Shown here piece by piece: positions 5,929-41,420 of a DNA stretch of 64,000 nucleotides. The position numbers and the translations under genes were made by a program. Origin of the DNA: a virus. The stretch lies in the UHGV virus genome UHGV-0112973; one strand, written 5' to 3'. The first letter of the stretch is position 1; each line of letters starts with the position of its first letter. Below the pieces are notes generated by a model. The model ran no database searches. It worked only from the letters and a program-made list of their open reading frames with translations, and was not told the origin of the DNA.

Positions 5929-6106
5929 TGATTTTTAAAACAGGGAAAGTGAAAATAAAAACATGCCGCAAGGCGCGGCATGTATCCAATCAATCACAGG
6001 AGCTGAAAATATGAACACGGCATTCAAAATCATTATGGCCGCGATCTATTTCTGGCTGTTCTCTATCACTTTTGGCGGCATCGTCGCGCATGGGTAAGGG
6101 GGATGC

Positions 6107-6685
6107 ATGAAAGGCGAAGTGAAAGAGCGCGGCATGATTTTCAACGATGAGATGGTCCGGGCAATTCTTGGCGGGAATAAAACACAGACTCGCAGGATTG
6201 TTGAAGAAAAATTCTATGGACGGGCAGTGGCCGCAGAGTTGCTTGCTAAGCATTGTCCATATGGTCAACCGGGCGATCGTATTTGGGTTCGCGAAACCTA
6301 CCGGGTACATGGCAAAGCGACGGACGTCGCAACGCTGGTTTATCGCGCAAGCGTGCGTAACTCCTGGACAGAACAAACGCACCGGGTTCCGGTCGAGGTT
6401 TGTAATAAACCAGTATCAGAAAAGTGGACGCCATCAATTCACATGCCGCGCTGGGCATCGCGCATTCTTCTGGAAATTACCGACGTGCGTGTGGAACGGC
6501 TGCGTGATATGAGCGAGGCAGATGCTAAAGCAGAAGGCGCATCTCCGGCGATGTACAAAATTACGCCGCCGGAAGCTGTTTATCGCGTTGGTTTTGGTGA
6601 TATCTGGCGCAGTATTTACGGGCAGGATAACTGGCTATCTAACCCGTGGGTATGGGTAATCGAGTTTAAGCGCATTCAGGAATAA
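6107..6685 (+). CDS. ASCH-like (PUA-fold) domain protein
   Basis: 192 aa; N-terminal EMVRAILGGNKTQTRR block typical of prophage ASCH-domain proteins. Confidence 0.45.
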   Translation: MKGEVKERGMIFNDEMVRAILGGNKTQTRRIVEEKFYGRAVAAELLAKHCPYGQPGDRIWVRETYRVHGKATDVATLVYRASVRNSWTEQTHRVPVEVCNKPVSEKWTPSIHMPRWASRILLEITDVRVERLRDMSEADAKAEGASPAMYKITPPEAVYRVGFGDIWRSIYGQDNWLSNPWVWVIEFKRIQE

Positions 6686-23379: not shown

Positions 23380-23577
23380 TAATTTATAGTGGGGACTTTT
23401 GATGGTGTAAAACCCCATGAATTATTATTTTTTAGTTTTTTGATTCTATTTTTTTTGCATTACCCGTCATAAAAATGAGCTTGCTTACATAATAGAAAAT
23501 TATTTTATCAACACTATTACAACAAACGATTATCACTGATAACATGAGTCCTTTGAAAACAAAGGACTCACCATACT

Positions 23578-24186
23578 ATGTCTAATACCTCGGCAAATGA
23601 AATTGTACCGCACTTACCGCTAATTTTCGAAAATGAAGCTAATGGGATTCTTCAGGATCTGGCCTATACTCCATCGCTTATGGGGTTGATGATGTTCCCG
23701 ACAGAAGAGGAGCTGAAAGCAGCGAGAAGCTACATAATTAACGTTTTTGAAGAGTGTTACCGAGCCGGTCATTTGCGCATTATGGGCTTTACTAATGAAG
23801 AAAACTTGTTCGGATACGCCTTAATCTTCGGACATCCATCGGGAAATTTTCCGTTGTACTGTCATAAAATATATGTATATGAGCAATATCGTGGTAATGG
23901 ACTTGGAAGTAATATACTGGCAGAAATACTTGCATTTCCAAATGAGGTCGCTTTGATTTGCCAGTCTGATTTGGTTCCTTTTTATGAATCAGCCGGAATG
24001 CACTTTAAAGGAAATTACACCACTCCATCAGTCGCCAATTTCAAAAAAACTCGCGGCATGTATGAGGGGCTTTGTTTGATGAGCACTGAAAAAAATGCAA
24101 ACTCTAATGGTGTACCTATATTCATGCTGAACGATAACGATATTGATAACATCATACAGGCTATCGCATCATCGGCACCACGATAA
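23578..24186 (+). CDS. GNAT-family N-acetyltransferase
   Basis: 202 aa; acetyl-CoA-binding-like segment YVYEQYRGNGLGSNILAEIL; AT-rich flanks. Confidence 0.55.
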   Translation: MSNTSANEIVPHLPLIFENEANGILQDLAYTPSLMGLMMFPTEEELKAARSYIINVFEECYRAGHLRIMGFTNEENLFGYALIFGHPSGNFPLYCHKIYVYEQYRGNGLGSNILAEILAFPNEVALICQSDLVPFYESAGMHFKGNYTTPSVANFKKTRGMYEGLCLMSTEKNANSNGVPIFMLNDNDIDNIIQAIASSAPR

Positions 24187-24268
24187 TATTAATAATTCAT
24201 CTCGCCGCAGGAACTACAAACCAGTTGATTGTTTGTGAAACGCCCGGTGCAAACCGGGCCAACAAAAC

Positions 24269-24517
24269 TCAATCAGCATTGAGAAGCAATGCATTATCTA
24301 TGATGATCTGCTCCCATTCTTCGAATGCCCGGTCGCGGACGCCCTGGGGAACACTGTTAGTTTTGAAATCGACGACCGTACGCCATTTCCCGTCCGGACG
24401 GTACATGCGCAGAGCTTTACTTCCCCCTTCCCTGCGCACCTCAACGTTATGCTTATCAGCAAACTCTTGTAATGCTCGTAGCGTCCCATGCTTTACTGTG
24501 TAGTATCGCTTTTTCAA
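24269..24517 (-). CDS. lxc: Lxc-like (Bof) C1 co-repressor
   Basis: 82-codon ORF (TTG start) immediately downstream of the ulx-like gene in the darB operon direction. Confidence 0.5.
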   Translation of the reverse strand: MKKRYYTVKHGTLRALQEFADKHNVEVRREGGSKALRMYRPDGKWRTVVDFKTNSVPQGVRDRAFEEWEQIIIDNALLLNAD

Positions 24518-35492: not shown

Positions 35493-35513
35493 ATAATGCA
35501 AATCACTTGTTAG
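35493..35513 (-). promoter_or_regulatory. candidate late promoter upstream of lyz (AACAAGTGATT + CATTAT)
   Basis: Same motif as at 31767 and 59341 in minus-strand sense, about 90 nt upstream of the lyz start. Confidence 0.3.
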
Positions 35514-35535
35514 CTACGTTTCAAAGATATACATT

Positions 35536-35552
35536 ATTGCTCTAATTAATTT
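35536..35552 (+). promoter_or_regulatory. C1 operator (ATTGCTCTAATTAATTT, 16/17)
   Basis: Near-consensus operator 20 bp upstream of ssb. Confidence 0.6.
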
Positions 35553-35571
35553 ATTTTATTAGGTAAGATAA

Positions 35572-36060
35572 GTGGCACAACGCGGTGTAAACAAAGTCAT
35601 CCTGATTGGTACCCTGGGGCAAGACCCGGAGATCAGGTATATACCAAATGGCGGAGCGGTCGGAAGACTCAGCATCGCAACGAATGAATCATGGCGCGAC
35701 AAGCAAACGGGCCAACAGAAAGAGCAAACAGAATGGCATAAAGTCGTTTTGTTCGGAAAACTTGCTGAAATTGCGAGTGAGTATTTACGAAAAGGTTCTC
35801 AGGTCTACATCGAAGGGAAACTTAAAACCCGTAAGTGGACAGATGACGCCGGTGTAGAACGTTACACGACGGAAATTATCGTCAGCCAGGGCGGCACCAT
35901 GCAAATGATCGGCGCTCGCCGTGACGATTCACAGTCCTCAAATGGCTGGGGGCAATCAAACCAACCTCAAAACCACCAGCAATACAGTGGTGGCGGTAAA
36001 CCTCAGAGCAACGCCAATAACGAACCTCCAATGGACTTTGACGACGATATTCCGTTTTGA
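35572..36060 (+). CDS. ssb: single-stranded DNA-binding protein
   Basis: 162 aa; OB-fold N-terminus, Gly/Gln-rich linker and C-terminal DFDDDIPF acidic tip. Confidence 0.9.
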
Positions 36061-36257
36061 ATGTGTAAAAAACGACTGAAAGAAAAGCGGTGGTCCAGAC
36101 GCCGACAAAAGCACGAACTCGCAAACAAACGCCAAAGTTGGCAATGGCACGCGCTTTTCACGAAAAGAACACCCCGAGATATTGCGTTCGCTGGTGGGAA
36201 AACATTCCTGACCCACCTGAAGGCGCAATACATCAGGTTTTAAGCAGAGGAAAGACT

Positions 36258-36935
36258 ATGAATAACATGACAACGAAAGAGCTTTTTACGGCACTTCCAA
36301 AATACAAAAGCCATAAAACAGTTCGCGCCTCAAAAATCAAAGATATCGAAATTATCGCCCTAATGGATGTGGTCCTTTTTTGCAACATCGAAGTCGTTGA
36401 GCCAGAAGGGGTAAAAGTCCATGTTGATAAAATATTTTTGCAAAAACACCGACCAGAAATTGGCGGATATCTGGTCGCTTATGAGGACGGATCTCTGTCC
36501 TATTCACCAGAAAAAACATTTGAAGAAGGCTTTAGTCGGACTAACGACTTCTTCGAAAATGGGGTATCGCTCAGCATTGAAGGTCACAATGGGGTGACAT
36601 TCATTACAGCCAGGGACGTAACTATTTCTGCTGGCGGTATCGCTACTCTACAAGAAGAAATCGACCTTGAAGCAGCCGACTTTTCTGACGCGCTGATGTG
36701 GCTGAAGGATGGCAAGAAAGTTGCCCGACGCGGGTGGAACGGCGAAAACCAATTCTGCTGGCTGGTTCCTGAAGGACAGTACCCGGCACGAATGGAAGCC
36801 ATTAAGGGATATTTCCCCGGCGACCTCGTTCCGTATGGTGCTTATTTCGCCTTAAAAAATGCACAAGGTGTAGTTGTTCCGTGGGTTCCTTCTGTAGGCG
36901 ACTTACTGGCATGTGACTGGTTTGTAGTGGAGTGA
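36258..36935 (+). CDS. DUF2829 (Tad2-like) domain protein with N-terminal extension
   Basis: C-terminal ALMWLKDGKKVARRGWNG...VVPWVPSVGDLLACDWFVV matches the DUF2829 hallmark; ATG after AGAGGAAAG RBS. Confidence 0.5.
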   Translation: MNNMTTKELFTALPKYKSHKTVRASKIKDIEIIALMDVVLFCNIEVVEPEGVKVHVDKIFLQKHRPEIGGYLVAYEDGSLSYSPEKTFEEGFSRTNDFFENGVSLSIEGHNGVTFITARDVTISAGGIATLQEEIDLEAADFSDALMWLKDGKKVARRGWNGENQFCWLVPEGQYPARMEAIKGYFPGDLVPYGAYFALKNAQGVVVPWVPSVGDLLACDWFVVE

Positions 36936-36941
36936 TTTAAC

Positions 36942-37724
36942 GTGGAAAATACTAAAGCAATTCAATACCGCCTGCGTAATGGTCAGAGTGTCGAAGTGAC
37001 CATCAATAATGATGGAGTACCTGGCGAAAAAGTTTCTATCTCTGATCTGGCTATCGAAAAAACCATCATGTGCCACCTTGGCTTTACTGAAGAAGTGAGC
37101 AAAAAGCATGGTGTAGCAATCTGGAGCGCAATGGATACTGGTATGCGCAAATTCATTACTGCTCGTACCCCAGGGATGACCATGATGGACCTCATGCAGA
37201 TTGCGCCGCTGTTTGAATGTGAGCCTTTAGATGTATTCAGCAATCCAGCTATCTGCCAGCAGTTATATGGTGAGATGAAACTCGCGGTTACCCCCATTGT
37301 GCTGCATGAAGGATCGCTTGCTGGCGTGTGGAAAGTAGAGCGTATTTCAAGCTACATGCCTTTCCATGTCAACGGCGTAATCACTGGTGAAAATCAACCT
37401 GTTTCCGTTATAAAGTCAGACCTCAAGCGCGCAATTCTTGAAGCAAGTTGTCGAGTTGTCGGGCTGGGCAAACAGTCTTATGTTTCCTTCCCGGCTGGCC
37501 CTGAAGGCCCGGCAGAAATTCTGATTATGGATGCCGATCTGCTCTGGCAAATACAGTTTCTGATTGGCAAAAGCATCATCCGCGCTGAAGAACTCGATCA
37601 GTACATTACCTGCACGATGACGGATGAAGTCAAAAGTGTGGCTATAGCCAATGCCCGGAACCTATGTCGTGCTGCATTAACAGAACTGCAAGAAAACACC
37701 ACGGAAGAAGTGGAAAGCGATTAA
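36942..37724 (+). CDS. hypothetical protein
   Basis: 260 aa; GTG start; followed by a bidirectional terminator. Confidence 0.35.
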   Translation: MENTKAIQYRLRNGQSVEVTINNDGVPGEKVSISDLAIEKTIMCHLGFTEEVSKKHGVAIWSAMDTGMRKFITARTPGMTMMDLMQIAPLFECEPLDVFSNPAICQQLYGEMKLAVTPIVLHEGSLAGVWKVERISSYMPFHVNGVITGENQPVSVIKSDLKRAILEASCRVVGLGKQSYVSFPAGPEGPAEILIMDADLLWQIQFLIGKSIIRAEELDQYITCTMTDEVKSVAIANARNLCRAALTELQENTTEEVESD

Positions 37725-37726
37725 AA

Positions 37727-37750
37727 AAAATCCCGCCGACTGGCGGGATT
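37727..37750. terminator. bidirectional hairpin terminator (AAATCCCGCCGACTGGCGGGATTT)
   Basis: Perfect 10-bp stem flanked by an A-run and a T-rich run between convergent genes. Confidence 0.6.
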
Positions 37751-37753
37751 TCT

Positions 37754-38065
37754 TCAATATACGATCTGGTCTACATGATCACCAAAATCATCGTCGTCGT
37801 CGTCCTCATCGCCACCATCTACTGCTGGCCAATCAACAAACCAGCCAGCGTAAAGATGCAGCGTTCGGAGAACATCACTTGCGGGAGCATCAAGGGTGTT
37901 AACGAATCCCATATAGCTATTGGGATTTGCCCCAGCTATGGCTTCAGCGATCATGTCCTCGGTAATGTCACCGGAGATAATGCTTAAACGCCCGGAAACT
38001 TCTTCATTATCATCAAATTCGATAATGGCATCTCCACCTAATGGCGCTGCGATTTTAATCTGCAT
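37754..38065 (-). CDS. small highly acidic protein, last gene of the darA operon
   Basis: 103 aa; C-terminal DGGDEDDDDDDFGD; start overlaps ddrB stop by about 11 nt. Confidence 0.4.
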   Translation of the reverse strand: MQIKIAAPLGGDAIIEFDDNEEVSGRLSIISGDITEDMIAEAIAGANPNSYMGFVNTLDAPASDVLRTLHLYAGWFVDWPAVDGGDEDDDDDDFGDHVDQIVY

Positions 38066-41042
38066 TATTTAGCTCCTTTGCCACACCTAATAACAGTTCC
38101 AGCAATCCGTCACCATTCATCAGTGATGCGGCAGCGGCCTCTTTGTCATGATACAACTGAAGAGCCATAGAGAATACTTCCGTTGCTGACGTTTTGGAAA
38201 TAGTCGGTGATTTCTGCCGAATTTTCCCGGTGTTACTTACTGAGGCTGGCGGGTATACCTTCGCCATATAAATATTACTCAATCGAGATCTGAAGCACCA
38301 TTCAGGCTTGCCACGCCCACCGATATTGACGAAAGATGGCTTATCCCCTTCAACATTGGCCTTCAGGAATGACCGGGCTTTCTCTAACAAACCAGGGTTA
38401 CTGTACTCAAGATGATGACCCAGCTCGTGCCACAGTGCACTTGCATTTTCATCGTTCAAATTGACAGCAACAACACCATTTAGATTTGCATATGCCCTTC
38501 CCTGGTGGTGAACTACCTTTGATAAGGTCGATATTTTCCCGCCGGTCAGGCGATAAATATCAGCAAGTTCCTTGCGCAGGTCTATCCCACCATTCTGTCC
38601 AGCGCGAGCTTCTTCCACTTCTTCCGTGATAAAAGAGTCGGCCCACTCAAGAGCTTTTTCTTCAGATACGGATGAGTTTGCGATCGCACTGTTCATGGCA
38701 GATAACACTTTCTCGTGGACCGAACCCATACTTCGCTGATTCATTTGCCAGCGTGTCTGCGGGTTATATGAGAATCGCTTAAGTAGTTGGTCAAGCTGCT
38801 CAAGTTCTTCTTCACTGACATACTTTTTAGCCTCACCAATAATGCCAGGGAGAATATTGCCGTTAGGATTAAACGCTCGCGAAAGGAAGAGTTTCAGCGC
38901 CCCCATGCCCTCCGATGCTTCAATATCACCAATAACACGGTTAACAATGGCCGCACTCTTCGGATTAGCATCCGCCAACGCTCTGGCTACGATTTGCAGG
39001 GACGATACGACCTCACGCTGCATATCCGTCCTGATCTCATCAATAAACTCTGGCGTTATGCCGTGCTCTTTAAGGATATCCCTGCCTTCCGCCGTTACCC
39101 CATCGATATCACCGACATGTTTATTAACCTGACTTTGCAATGCCTTAAATGCCTTCAGAATTCCACGGGCATCATCAGCTTTACTAACGGCCTTCCTGAA
39201 TGCTGGCAAGAAGTCAGAGTTAACCTCATTTTGTTGATCGGCCCACTGAATGGAGGCTTCTTTCATCTCGTCCAGAGTCAGATCACCCAACGCGGTATGG
39301 TCTGTGAATATGAGCGACAACCTCTGAACCATTTCTGCCAATGGTGATGCCGAATGCGCCGCGCTAAGGAATGCTTTCACCCTGGTTGGGCGAATGGAAA
39401 ACCAGTCAATAGCTGGTGGCATATCTCCGTTTTTTATCGCCTGCGCTATCTCGTCAAAGCCATCGCGCCCAAGGGAGGATGCGTGATTTAACAAGCCGCG
39501 AAGTAACGAATTGCTGATACCGAATAATCGGCACCATTTTTTCACGTCGGCAACAGGCATTCGAACAAAATGCGCAAGCACTTGTACAAGCTGTTCATCC
39601 TGGGGATCTGTGCGGGAAAGCAGCCTGATCAGATGAATAATGTCTTTGATGCCGGATGCCCGATGTAATAGCAAACTGGTATACGGAGCAACACCGTTGT
39701 AACTACCGCCGGAAACGGACTCGAAAAGACCGCCGGATATCCCTTGCATGCCTTCGTTTTCCAGTTCCTGAGACACCTGGCGAAGGATATCCTGTAACGA
39801 CACATCACCACCGCCAAACATATCCCCCAGCGCCTGGCCCTGGTGCTGTAACTCATCATTGATACGTTGAGCCATCAATTTAAAGGCGGTGGCCATACGC
39901 TTCGCGCTACGGTTATTCGCGACGATGAACAACGCGAGCGCTTTCACTTCCGGGGCTGTTTCGCTGAACATATCCCCCTGAGCAATAACATCGATAATAT
40001 GTTGGCCTGACTCCTTCGATTGCCTTACCAGGTCTACCGCATCTTTCAATGCCGCCAGCGCCTTTTTATCGAGACTATCCGCTGTCTCAATACCATCAAC
40101 AATAGTTGTCACAGCCTGCTTGTGCGCTTCTCCTGATAAAGCCTGCATCTGGACAAAATCATTGGCTGCCGCATTAAGCGCCGTCAGAACATTACGCATA
40201 TCCGGATCAGGTTCTTCTGCAACCATCCTTACCAGGCGCGCATCCTTATATGCCTTGGCAAAGATCGCGTTTTGTATACGGTCTACAAGTTGCCGTGTTG
40301 GTCGCCCATCTTCCGTTACAAGGCCAGCAGCCTGTGTGGCACCAACTTGCGTCATGAATCCGCGAATAAACGCGTCATTACTGCGGCTAAGCAGATCTCC
40401 GCTTTCTGATGGGTTAAACAGCGCCATCATCGCCGGAGTTATGCTGTCAGCATCAACAAAAGCCTTTTCACTGGCTGCCATTTCCTGAAGATCAGAAATA
40501 TTTGAGTCCTTGGCAAACTGAACGCGGTCAACCTTAGTTAACCGGCGGCGCACCAGTACCGGAGCCGCCATTGATTCAACCTTTTCAGGTCGTATGCCGA
40601 ATTCGGTCGCATGATCAATCAGGTACTCACGATACCGATCCGCATTGCCGTCCTGATAGGCTTTGATGATCCCCATGGTCCGTCCATTACCTGACTCAAC
40701 GGCATTGTCCTCACCAATTATCGGCGCGCCATGGCTGGATAAACCGGAATCGGTAAGCTGGGCAGGACGCAAATCCTTGGATATCTGGTTGACCTGAAGA
40801 AGACTGGATGCGCGGGTCCGGTCGCGCGGCTGAAGTTCCTGGGGATAGTCAGGGTTAATTTTCCCGTCCAGAGTATTGGATACCAAAAGAGCTGAGGCAT
40901 CGACGATATCAAACGCTGTTTTTACCTCGTCTCCCTTCGCTGTCACCACATACGAAACCCGCCCGTAATTGGGCAGGTTTTTTAGCAGCTCGATCAGCGT
41001 TTCTATGCTGGTGGCCATTACCACCTGATCGCTTAAGCTCAT
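38055..41042 (-). CDS. ddrB: DdrB-like protein with HExxH motif
   Basis: 995 aa; follows ddrA/darA; C-terminal region contains WHELGHHLEY. Confidence 0.6.
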   Translation of the reverse strand: MSLSDQVVMATSIETLIELLKNLPNYGRVSYVVTAKGDEVKTAFDIVDASALLVSNTLDGKINPDYPQELQPRDRTRASSLLQVNQISKDLRPAQLTDSGLSSHGAPIIGEDNAVESGNGRTMGIIKAYQDGNADRYREYLIDHATEFGIRPEKVESMAAPVLVRRRLTKVDRVQFAKDSNISDLQEMAASEKAFVDADSITPAMMALFNPSESGDLLSRSNDAFIRGFMTQVGATQAAGLVTEDGRPTRQLVDRIQNAIFAKAYKDARLVRMVAEEPDPDMRNVLTALNAAANDFVQMQALSGEAHKQAVTTIVDGIETADSLDKKALAALKDAVDLVRQSKESGQHIIDVIAQGDMFSETAPEVKALALFIVANNRSAKRMATAFKLMAQRINDELQHQGQALGDMFGGGDVSLQDILRQVSQELENEGMQGISGGLFESVSGGSYNGVAPYTSLLLHRASGIKDIIHLIRLLSRTDPQDEQLVQVLAHFVRMPVADVKKWCRLFGISNSLLRGLLNHASSLGRDGFDEIAQAIKNGDMPPAIDWFSIRPTRVKAFLSAAHSASPLAEMVQRLSLIFTDHTALGDLTLDEMKEASIQWADQQNEVNSDFLPAFRKAVSKADDARGILKAFKALQSQVNKHVGDIDGVTAEGRDILKEHGITPEFIDEIRTDMQREVVSSLQIVARALADANPKSAAIVNRVIGDIEASEGMGALKLFLSRAFNPNGNILPGIIGEAKKYVSEEELEQLDQLLKRFSYNPQTRWQMNQRSMGSVHEKVLSAMNSAIANSSVSEEKALEWADSFITEEVEEARAGQNGGIDLRKELADIYRLTGGKISTLSKVVHHQGRAYANLNGVVAVNLNDENASALWHELGHHLEYSNPGLLEKARSFLKANVEGDKPSFVNIGGRGKPEWCFRSRLSNIYMAKVYPPASVSNTGKIRQKSPTISKTSATEVFSMALQLYHDKEAAAASLMNGDGLLELLLGVAKELNNAD

Positions 41043-41054
41043 CCCTGTTACGCC

Positions 41055-41420
41055 TTACTCTGCCTCTTTAATGTTGGCGGCTATCCATGCCGCCGTGTGC
41101 TGTTTAACCTGGTCCAGATCGATGTATGTGCCAACATATTGACTCAAGTCCTGCAACGTACCGATAAATGCATCGGTGCTCTGATCGACGAATTTATCAG
41201 CCAGGAAATCAGCAACCAGTTTTGGCACACCATCATGTACCGAAGGTTGTTTTTCCTCGCCACTACTGCCGCCGGACACACCGTACCCCATCTGTTGCAT
41301 GATCTGGTCAATTTCATCGCTGATATCCAGCAACTCCATGCCACTCGCGGTAGCCGCTTTGGACATCAGAGCATCCAACTTATCGCTGAGATCCATTAAC
41401 TCAATAGCTGATAGTGTCAT
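41055..41420 (-). CDS. ddrA: DdrA-like protein
   Basis: 121 aa; translationally coupled downstream of darA. Confidence 0.5.
   Translation of the reverse strand: MTLSAIELMDLSDKLDALMSKAATASGMELLDISDEIDQIMQQMGYGVSGGSSGEEKQPSVHDGVPKLVADFLADKFVDQSTDAFIGTLQDLSQYVGTYIDLDQVKQHTAAWIAANIKEAE

Follow-up and report, generated by a model that had tools for sequence, protein, structure and literature searches.

An OB-fold domain fused to Tad2 in the ssb operon of a P1-like phage-plasmid: a candidate two-module counter-defence protein

Background

Between ssb and the dar/ddr anti-restriction region of a P1-like phage-plasmid stands a gene that P1 itself lacks, which raises the questions of what its product does, how the gene came to be there, and what each half of the protein contributes. 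The window analysed here is the whole 64,000-nucleotide stretch of virus genome UHGV-0112973. It derives from a P1-like (SJ46-type) phage-plasmid, sharing 99.5% identity with Salmonella phage SJ46 over positions 35500-38100 and collinearity with it over ~17 kb around the locus. Our reading, to which we assign a probability of about 0.7 from its sequence and context, is that the gene would encode a counter-defence protein of two modules, made early, in which the Tad2 domain captures a TIR-type signal.

The locus and the start of the gene

The features of the locus are collected in Table 1. An initial annotation had placed the open reading frame in the gap between ssb and ddrB and beside counter-defence genes, and both statements hold: ssb lies upstream, isaA, hxr and ddrB (38055-41042, minus strand) lie downstream, and the adjoining dar/ddr region continues with ddrA, darA and hdf in the same order as in SJ46.

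Table 1. Features of the OB-Tad2 locus, with positions in the window
Feature	Position	Strand	Basis or remarks
ssb promoters P2ssb and P1ssb, with C1 operator Op21/Ossb (35536-35552, ATTGCTCTAATTAATTT)	35507-35569	+	P1 annotation
ssb, first gene of the operon	35572-36060	+	ORF list; 99% identity to P1 and SJ46 ssb
Conserved 197-nt spacer, ssb to OB-Tad2 ORF	36061-36257	+	Carries GAGGA
OB-Tad2 ORF	36258-36935	+	ATG 36258; TGA 36933-36935; 225 aa
Dec-like OB-fold domain, N-terminal	36258-36548	+	aa 1-97; folded core ~aa 13-97
Beta-prone linker	36549-36665	+	aa 98-136; two allelic forms in the family, GVSLSIEGHNGVTFITARDVTISAGG and GTTVIITDDNGVMINLTGSVTISAGG
Tad2 (DUF2829) sponge domain and stop codon	36666-36935	+	aa 137-225
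isaA homologue	36942-37724	+	GTG start 7 nt past the Tad2 stop
hxr and ddrB, start of the dar/ddr anti-restriction region	37754-41042	-	ORFs; P1/SJ46 annotation

The start codon needs some care, as the spacer upstream of the gene is open in frame with it and is annotated as coding, from GTG 36090, in both P1 (isaA) and SJ46 (J46_0048). This spacer is 99% identical to its counterparts in P1 and in Escherichia albertii plasmid pEA4_97, and identity drops to 66-78% in the adjoining gene. Copies of the gene in the context of D6-type plasmids lack the spacer apart from its last 21 nt, so that homology begins 21 nt 5' of the ATG, and PGAP calls genes of 678 nt, i.e. with the shorter ATG start, in related plasmids. 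These two observations favour ATG 36258, which is preceded at a distance of six bases by a Shine-Dalgarno sequence (GAGGA, 36247-36251). To judge from the alignments, translation is very unlikely to begin at GTG 36090, and the lack of nearly all of the spacer in the D6-context copies suggests that this spacer is probably non-coding. Neither the spacer nor the operon has an Rfam match above noise, and the RNA fold z-score of the spacer is only -2.1. The annotation of P1 isaA and of SJ46 J46_0048 can be corrected to match: their GTG start very likely adds a non-coding leader of 56 codons.

With respect to expression, positions 35495-35580 are 100% identical to the annotated promoter and operator region of P1, and no terminator-like or promoter-like site was found on the plus strand from ssb to the ORF. 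The identity of the control region and the absence of consensus signals before the ORF together suggest that the gene and ssb probably share a transcript that starts at the C1-repressed promoter. It would thus be silent in the plasmid-prophage state, and its product would be made early after infection or induction, which is when a sponge must accumulate according to Yirmiya et al.

Two differences from SJ46 were observed elsewhere. The window does not have the IS605 transposase gene insQ that separates ddrB from ddrA in SJ46; the two SJ46 alignment blocks abut at 41057. At positions 23381-24271, SJ46 carries the RelA/SpoT-family gene J46_0058, which we take to be a CapRel defence gene, and the window instead contains an ORF of 202 aa (23578-24186, plus strand) with a match to phrog_10454, weak matches to acetyltransferase PHROGs and a GNAT-like motif. 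Lying between lxc and the maturation-control gene, this site has the look of a variable slot for accessory or defence genes.

Relationship to isaA and isaB of P1

Where did the gene come from? The initial annotation proposed that it is the uninterrupted ancestor of a gene that IS1 split into isaA and isaB of P1, and suggested aligning the two to its halves. What speaks for this reading is position, all three lying in the same ssb-hxr interval. The alignment (tblastn) gives a different picture. P1 IsaA, which as annotated consists of the 56-residue leader plus a body, matches the next ORF downstream (36945-37721) with 94% identity over residues 60-320, and IsaB has no match above noise anywhere in the 64-kb window. 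The upstream spacer, annotated as coding in P1, is the only sequence besides the start codon that the ORF shares with P1 isaA, and neither IsaA nor IsaB is homologous to the body of the ORF.

The DNA alignment tells the same story. Only 3 SNPs separate the window from P1 from ssb through the 197-nt spacer, ATG 36258 included; the two sequences part right after this ATG and rejoin at ~36946. Collinearity up to the ATG and again from ~36946 indicates that the Tad2 gene is an extra cassette and not a gene split by IS1. On this alignment, the OB-Tad2 ORF is best described as a cassette of ~690 bp inserted between the start codon and the body of isaA, and P1 is without it. The tblastn and junction alignments rule out the two halves hypothesis, leaving practically no chance that the ORF is an intact ancestor. 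In the window, OB-Tad2 takes over the ribosome-binding site and start codon that serve isaA in P1, and isaA is shifted to GTG 36942.

In D6-type plasmids, the cassette unit is found behind the dUTPase gene (dut) in place of ssb. The unit common to this context (36237-36982) runs from 21 nt before the ORF, at the end of the spacer, to ~40 nt into isaA. A homologue of isaA is always the next gene after OB-Tad2, both in the P1 context (after ssb) and in the D6 context (after dut), its start lying 7 nt past the OB-Tad2 stop, and it may be functionally linked to the cassette. The family is narrow, with 20 clusters confined to P1-like and D6-like elements. The isaA product matches phrog_2326, whose function is unknown, and it has no match in Pfam and no sequence match in the PDB. 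Its AlphaFold2 model is poor (mean pLDDT 50.6, with only residues 35-110 confident), having been built from an alignment of 10 close sequences.

The Tad2 domain

The C-terminal domain can be identified with confidence, and here the initial annotation, which had recognised DUF2829/Tad2 and called for a Pfam search and a structural comparison, is borne out. Pfam family PF11195 (Tad2-like, formerly DUF2829) matches residues 141-224 with an E value of 1.7e-22 and 80.1 bits, against a gathering cutoff of 25 bits, and the match covers profile positions 2-73 of 73. In the PDB, the sequence matches are all to Tad2 proteins, namely ModTad2 (9EIB/8V3E, E ~1e-20; 6e-20 for 9eib), HgmTad2/AcrIIA7 (8kbi), SPO1 Tad2 (8sme) and SptTad2. 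The elements of the Tad2 fold, i.e. the alpha1 helix, the antiparallel sheet and the beta2-beta5 insertion, are all present.

The crystal structures define the residues that bind gcADPR: W25, N26, W73, S76, T78 and D79 in SPO1 Tad2, and W21, N22, G23, W87, S90, T92 and D93 in HgmTad2. The equivalent positions here, by alignment, are W160, N161, G162, W209, S212, G214 and D215. The core of the pocket (W160, N161, G162, W209, S212, D215) is thus kept, as is the fold, in common with SPO1 Tad2 and HgmTad2 (8SME-G, 8KBI-M), both of which are single-domain proteins with ~33-35% identity to the window protein in Foldseek. Gly214 replaces the threonine of these two proteins (SPO1 T78, HgmTad2 T92), and the residues on the adenine side differ as well, which means that ligand specificity is not readable from sequence.

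The nearest characterised relative is ModTad2 (also MoTad2) from a Myroides odoratus prophage, with 42-49% identity to the Tad2 domain. ModTad2 inhibits type II Thoeris, its structure has been solved with His-ADPR, and it binds cUMP and cCMP in a second pocket; it blocks Pycsar and rescues phage P1 from the Pycsar system of E. coli E831. It is a stand-alone protein of 89 aa, whereas the window protein has ~136 extra N-terminal residues, and it has Ser before the conserved Asp where the window protein has Gly; binding of His-ADPR and of cUMP/cCMP has been demonstrated for ModTad2 only. The beta2-beta5 insertion also places the two together. At ~25 residues, that of the window protein is of the medium, ModTad2 class, intermediate between the 35-41 aa of HgmTad2, whose longer insertion forms a pocket that binds cyclic dinucleotides, and the short, occluded insertion of SPO1 Tad2. 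The equivalent interface in ModTad2 is the proposed cUMP site, based on an AlphaFold3 model and point mutations. With ModTad2 as its nearest characterised relative, the Tad2 domain most likely acts as a sponge that takes up a TIR signal derived from ADPR, and it may have a second pocket. In the literature, we found no report of signal binding by the window protein or of relief from Thoeris, CBASS or Pycsar.

A different function is implied by the label 'AcrIIA7' attached to DUF2829 proteins in DefenseFinder and the PDB, namely that of an anti-CRISPR. This reading draws on the homology to AcrIIA7/HgmTad2 and on the DefenseFinder name 'Tad2 AcrIIA7', and we consider it highly improbable. Neither E. 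coli nor Salmonella is known for carrying type II-A CRISPR-Cas. Moreover, Li et al. failed to reproduce inhibition of Cas9 by HgmTad2 or other Tad2 proteins, in vitro or in vivo, and showed sponge activity; it is on these published negative Cas9 data that we reject the anti-CRISPR reading.

The N-terminal OB-fold domain

The initial annotation described the N-terminal part as a domain of about 140 aa of unknown function. The fusion of ~136 aa is real and has no Pfam or NCBIfam match, but the region is recognisable as an OB fold resembling the Dec protein, followed by a beta-prone linker. In the monomer model, residues ~13-97 form a small beta-barrel with two helices (pLDDT ~90), and the pLDDT of linker residues 98-136 is below 50. 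No named family was found for the N-terminal region in Pfam, NCBIfam or PHROGs; the PHROG families that matched are without assigned function. The closest solved structure is the capsid decoration protein Dec of phage L (Foldseek E 1.2e-3, 27% identity). An OB profile run against PDB sequences recovers Dec at E 0.005-0.01, and hhalign of a 43-member OB profile against Dec (6E3C) gives 94.2% probability and E 1.2e-7 over Dec residues 9-91, including the core KPEVGGYL...Y.S..FE..Y.

It might be supposed that the N-terminal half works as Dec does, with the OB domain binding the capsid or coat protein and the linker forming a trimeric beta-helix stalk, so that the protein would decorate the virion or tether Tad2 to the capsid. 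In Dec, the OB fold (residues 12-89) precedes a tail of 45 residues, disordered as long as the protein is monomeric, from which a trimeric beta-helix is built on the capsid; the layout of the window protein is similar, its OB fold being succeeded by ~40 aa that lack structure in the monomer. The low-pLDDT, beta-prone linker also bears a weak resemblance to the beta-helices of VgrG and tail fibres; these matches (E 0.76 to the VgrG beta-helix in the PDB, E 0.11 to a tail-fibre PHROG) are, however, non-significant, and the alignment of the linker is shallow. Other observations also argue against a Dec-like role. Dec is made late, as a structural protein, and attaches to capsids in trimeric form, whereas the present gene lies in the early C1-controlled ssb operon behind Op21, away from any late structural cluster, and its product ends in Tad2. 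P1 virions have been reported to be without decoration proteins. The motifs CHK, KH.P and DGY.S.SP, conserved and specific to the OB family, are missing from Dec, and stand-alone OB genes lie beside capsid genes in none of six contexts. Finally, anything bound to the outer face of the capsid would stay out of the cell, and a trimer would clash with a Tad2 tetramer. A Dec-like role is therefore quite unlikely.

The most conserved residues of the OB family are H19, K20, K26, K63, H64, Y71, Y75, D77, Y79, S81, S83, F88, E89 and Y92, a set that Dec does not share. The allele in the window has Ser at Tyr79, a position conserved in 98% of the family, and Phe at Tyr92.

The OB family and its fusions

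To place this domain, the OB profile was searched against 1.84 billion representative proteins. The search gave 3197 clusters at E<=1e-3 and 505 at E<=1e-10, a family of at least 3,200 clusters at 50% identity; a second OB search gave 3299 clusters of 90% identity at E<=1e-5. Members are mostly stand-alone proteins of 85-105 aa labelled as hypothetical. In the six long contigs with stand-alone OB genes, these genes are found either within arrays of small genes of unknown function or close to early and replication genes, with neighbours that include DNA polymerase A, GIY-YIG, NinG and Lar/DUF551, and no capsid gene adjoins any of them. On one metagenomic phage contig (L005), stand-alone Tad2 and OB genes (791-1054 and 6001-6303) lie 5 kb apart in one small-gene array that adjoins an nSTAND3/AAA gene.

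Fusions were scored by Pfam among 75 multidomain representatives of the OB family. Tad2 (PF11195) is fused to the OB domain in four members, three in the order OB-Tad2 (P0075, P0090, P0099) and one reversed as Tad2-OB (P0196). Phage_gp49_66 (PF13876, Acb4) and crAss001_48 (PF21825, Sequestin) account for five members each, and single members carry the Acb2/Tad1 hairpin (PF24729; P0166), the T7 Gp5.9 RecBCD inhibitor (PF25708; P0177) and DUF551 (PF04448). One protein of 300 aa (P0152) combines the OB domain with both Acb4 and Sequestin. In ~60 further multidomain members the partner regions have no Pfam match and may hide more anti-defence domains. Two giant proteins (P0072 and P0074) were set aside: their 9-11 apparent OB stretches are spurious, and both are adhesins with Big_9/cadherin repeats.

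This pattern has a precedent. Tal et al. (2025, bioRxiv 10.1101/2025.07.12.664507) identified PF13876 as the Acb4 sponge and PF21825 as a new sponge family, Sequestin, a discovery that rested on the frequent fusion of sponges to one another. Their screen used Pfam families only, and the OB domain, having no Pfam model, would have been invisible to it. In the sponge-sponge fusions that they describe (Acb4-Tad2 of Pasteurella phage Pm86, Tad2-Sequestin and Sequestin-Acb4), Tad2 is linked to a second small phage domain, and the OB domain similarly also occurs alone and fuses promiscuously to several sponge families. The partner here differs in being a Dec-like OB fold without a Pfam model and not a known sponge; of the two fused domains only Tad2 qualifies as a demonstrated sponge. 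Fusion to several sponge families, as seen with Sequestin, marks the OB family as a candidate counter-defence module, possibly a sponge, although this is an association and not a proof. Our literature search found no paper tying an OB fold to sponges or to Tad2, nor one that describes the Dec-like OB module, the family to which it belongs or the pattern of its fusions. Lockin was considered as the identity of the family and discarded, since its published description (a hexameric cog, absent from INPHARED phages) does not fit and no such PDB match was obtained.

Alleles, evolution and distribution

The Enterobacteriaceae protein is a three-part mosaic of several OB variants, two linker variants and three Tad2 variants, the last differing chiefly in the pocket insertion, which is short, medium or long. 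Two comparisons illustrate this. Aligned with E. albertii pEA4_97, another copy in the P1 context, the window is almost unchanged in ssb (99.2% nucleotide identity) and the spacer (99.0%) and somewhat less similar in isaA (93.5%), whereas within the gene itself the OB segment stands at 77.0%, the linker at 65.8% and the Tad2 segment at 77.6%. In the comparison with a D6-context plasmid, identity reaches 99.6% for the Tad2 segment while the OB segment and the linker are at 74.9% and 67.5%. The gene is a mosaic hot spot of divergence, set in nearly identical flanking DNA, whose domains have recombined independently.

Deletions point in a similar direction. The D6 allele (2384-2824 of locus L007; orf114 of phage D6) has lost the OB domain in frame and keeps residues 1-20, the linker and Tad2, and P0038 retains the OB domain and linker, ends in FVVE and is missing Tad2. 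The linker is thus present in both of these truncated forms. As far as sequence can tell, mosaicism and deletions fit an arms-race gene whose modules can act separately.

It could also be argued that Tad2 alone matters, the OB domain and linker being a passive or decaying passenger of recombination in this lineage. The allele without the OB domain is the common form in D6-type plasmids, and the window allele is substituted at two nearly invariant OB positions (Tyr79 and Tyr92); the OB module may accordingly be dispensable or decaying here. On the other hand, the OB frame is intact in most of 229 plasmid copies, with 52-99% protein identity and conserved motifs; P0038 lost Tad2 instead; and distant lineages have paired OB with Tad2 independently, in either order. 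We therefore regard a mere passenger role as unlikely.

Copies of the gene are present in 229 plasmids of PLSDB, almost all of which are non-mobilisable and ~90-100 kb in size, and in 213 of 5426 complete E. coli genomes (~4%). In phage RCS47 (FO818745.1), where an ISSod13-family transposase is annotated at this point, the match begins only at position 1199 of the query; a different IS seems to have interrupted the cassette there. It should be noted that the presence of Tad2 in P1 and D6 phage-plasmids is already annotated and is not new: PGAP labels the product 'DUF2829 domain-containing protein', UniRef 'Thoeris anti-defense Tad2 family protein', and a 2025 phage-plasmid preprint lists the DefenseFinder call 'Tad2 AcrIIA7 (anti-Thoeris)' in 93% of D6-type and 56% of P1-type elements.

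Proposed function and implications

Returning to the reading of the gene as an early two-module counter-defence protein, the following mechanism is proposed. The Tad2 domain would most likely form the usual homotetramer, in which the pockets lie where protomers meet, and sequester an ADP-ribose-derived TIR signal, most likely of the His-ADPR or cADPR type, and its medium, ModTad2-like insertion might also bind a cyclic mono- or dinucleotide. A Thoeris-type effector, possibly also one of Pycsar or CBASS, would be kept inactive in this way. The OB domain would be a separate, widespread phage accessory module that has been joined recurrently to anti-defence domains. That it adds a second anti-defence activity is our leading guess from the fusion pattern, a tentative one that we hold at less than even odds. 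By the same token, and just as tentatively, the OB family itself may be a new immune-signal sponge or another anti-defence module, which would make the P1-like protein a natural two-pronged inhibitor. A more speculative variant is that the OB domain, like Dec, binds the coat protein and hides the capsid trigger that signalling defences respond to, with Tad2 mopping up the signal.

For the Tad2 half, these results add little that is new: it is a probably early-expressed, fast-diversifying allele closest to ModTad2, which binds His-ADPR and cNMPs. As an allele carried by P1-like phage-plasmids, it is relevant to the persistence of these clinically common elements. Experiments would find ready-made controls in naturally matched alleles, namely the full-length form, the D6 form without the OB domain, P0038 without Tad2 and P1 without the gene. 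The larger value lies in the N-terminal OB family, which is found alone in phage early regions and fused to four sponge families and a RecBCD inhibitor, a fusion signature of the same kind as that which led to Sequestin.
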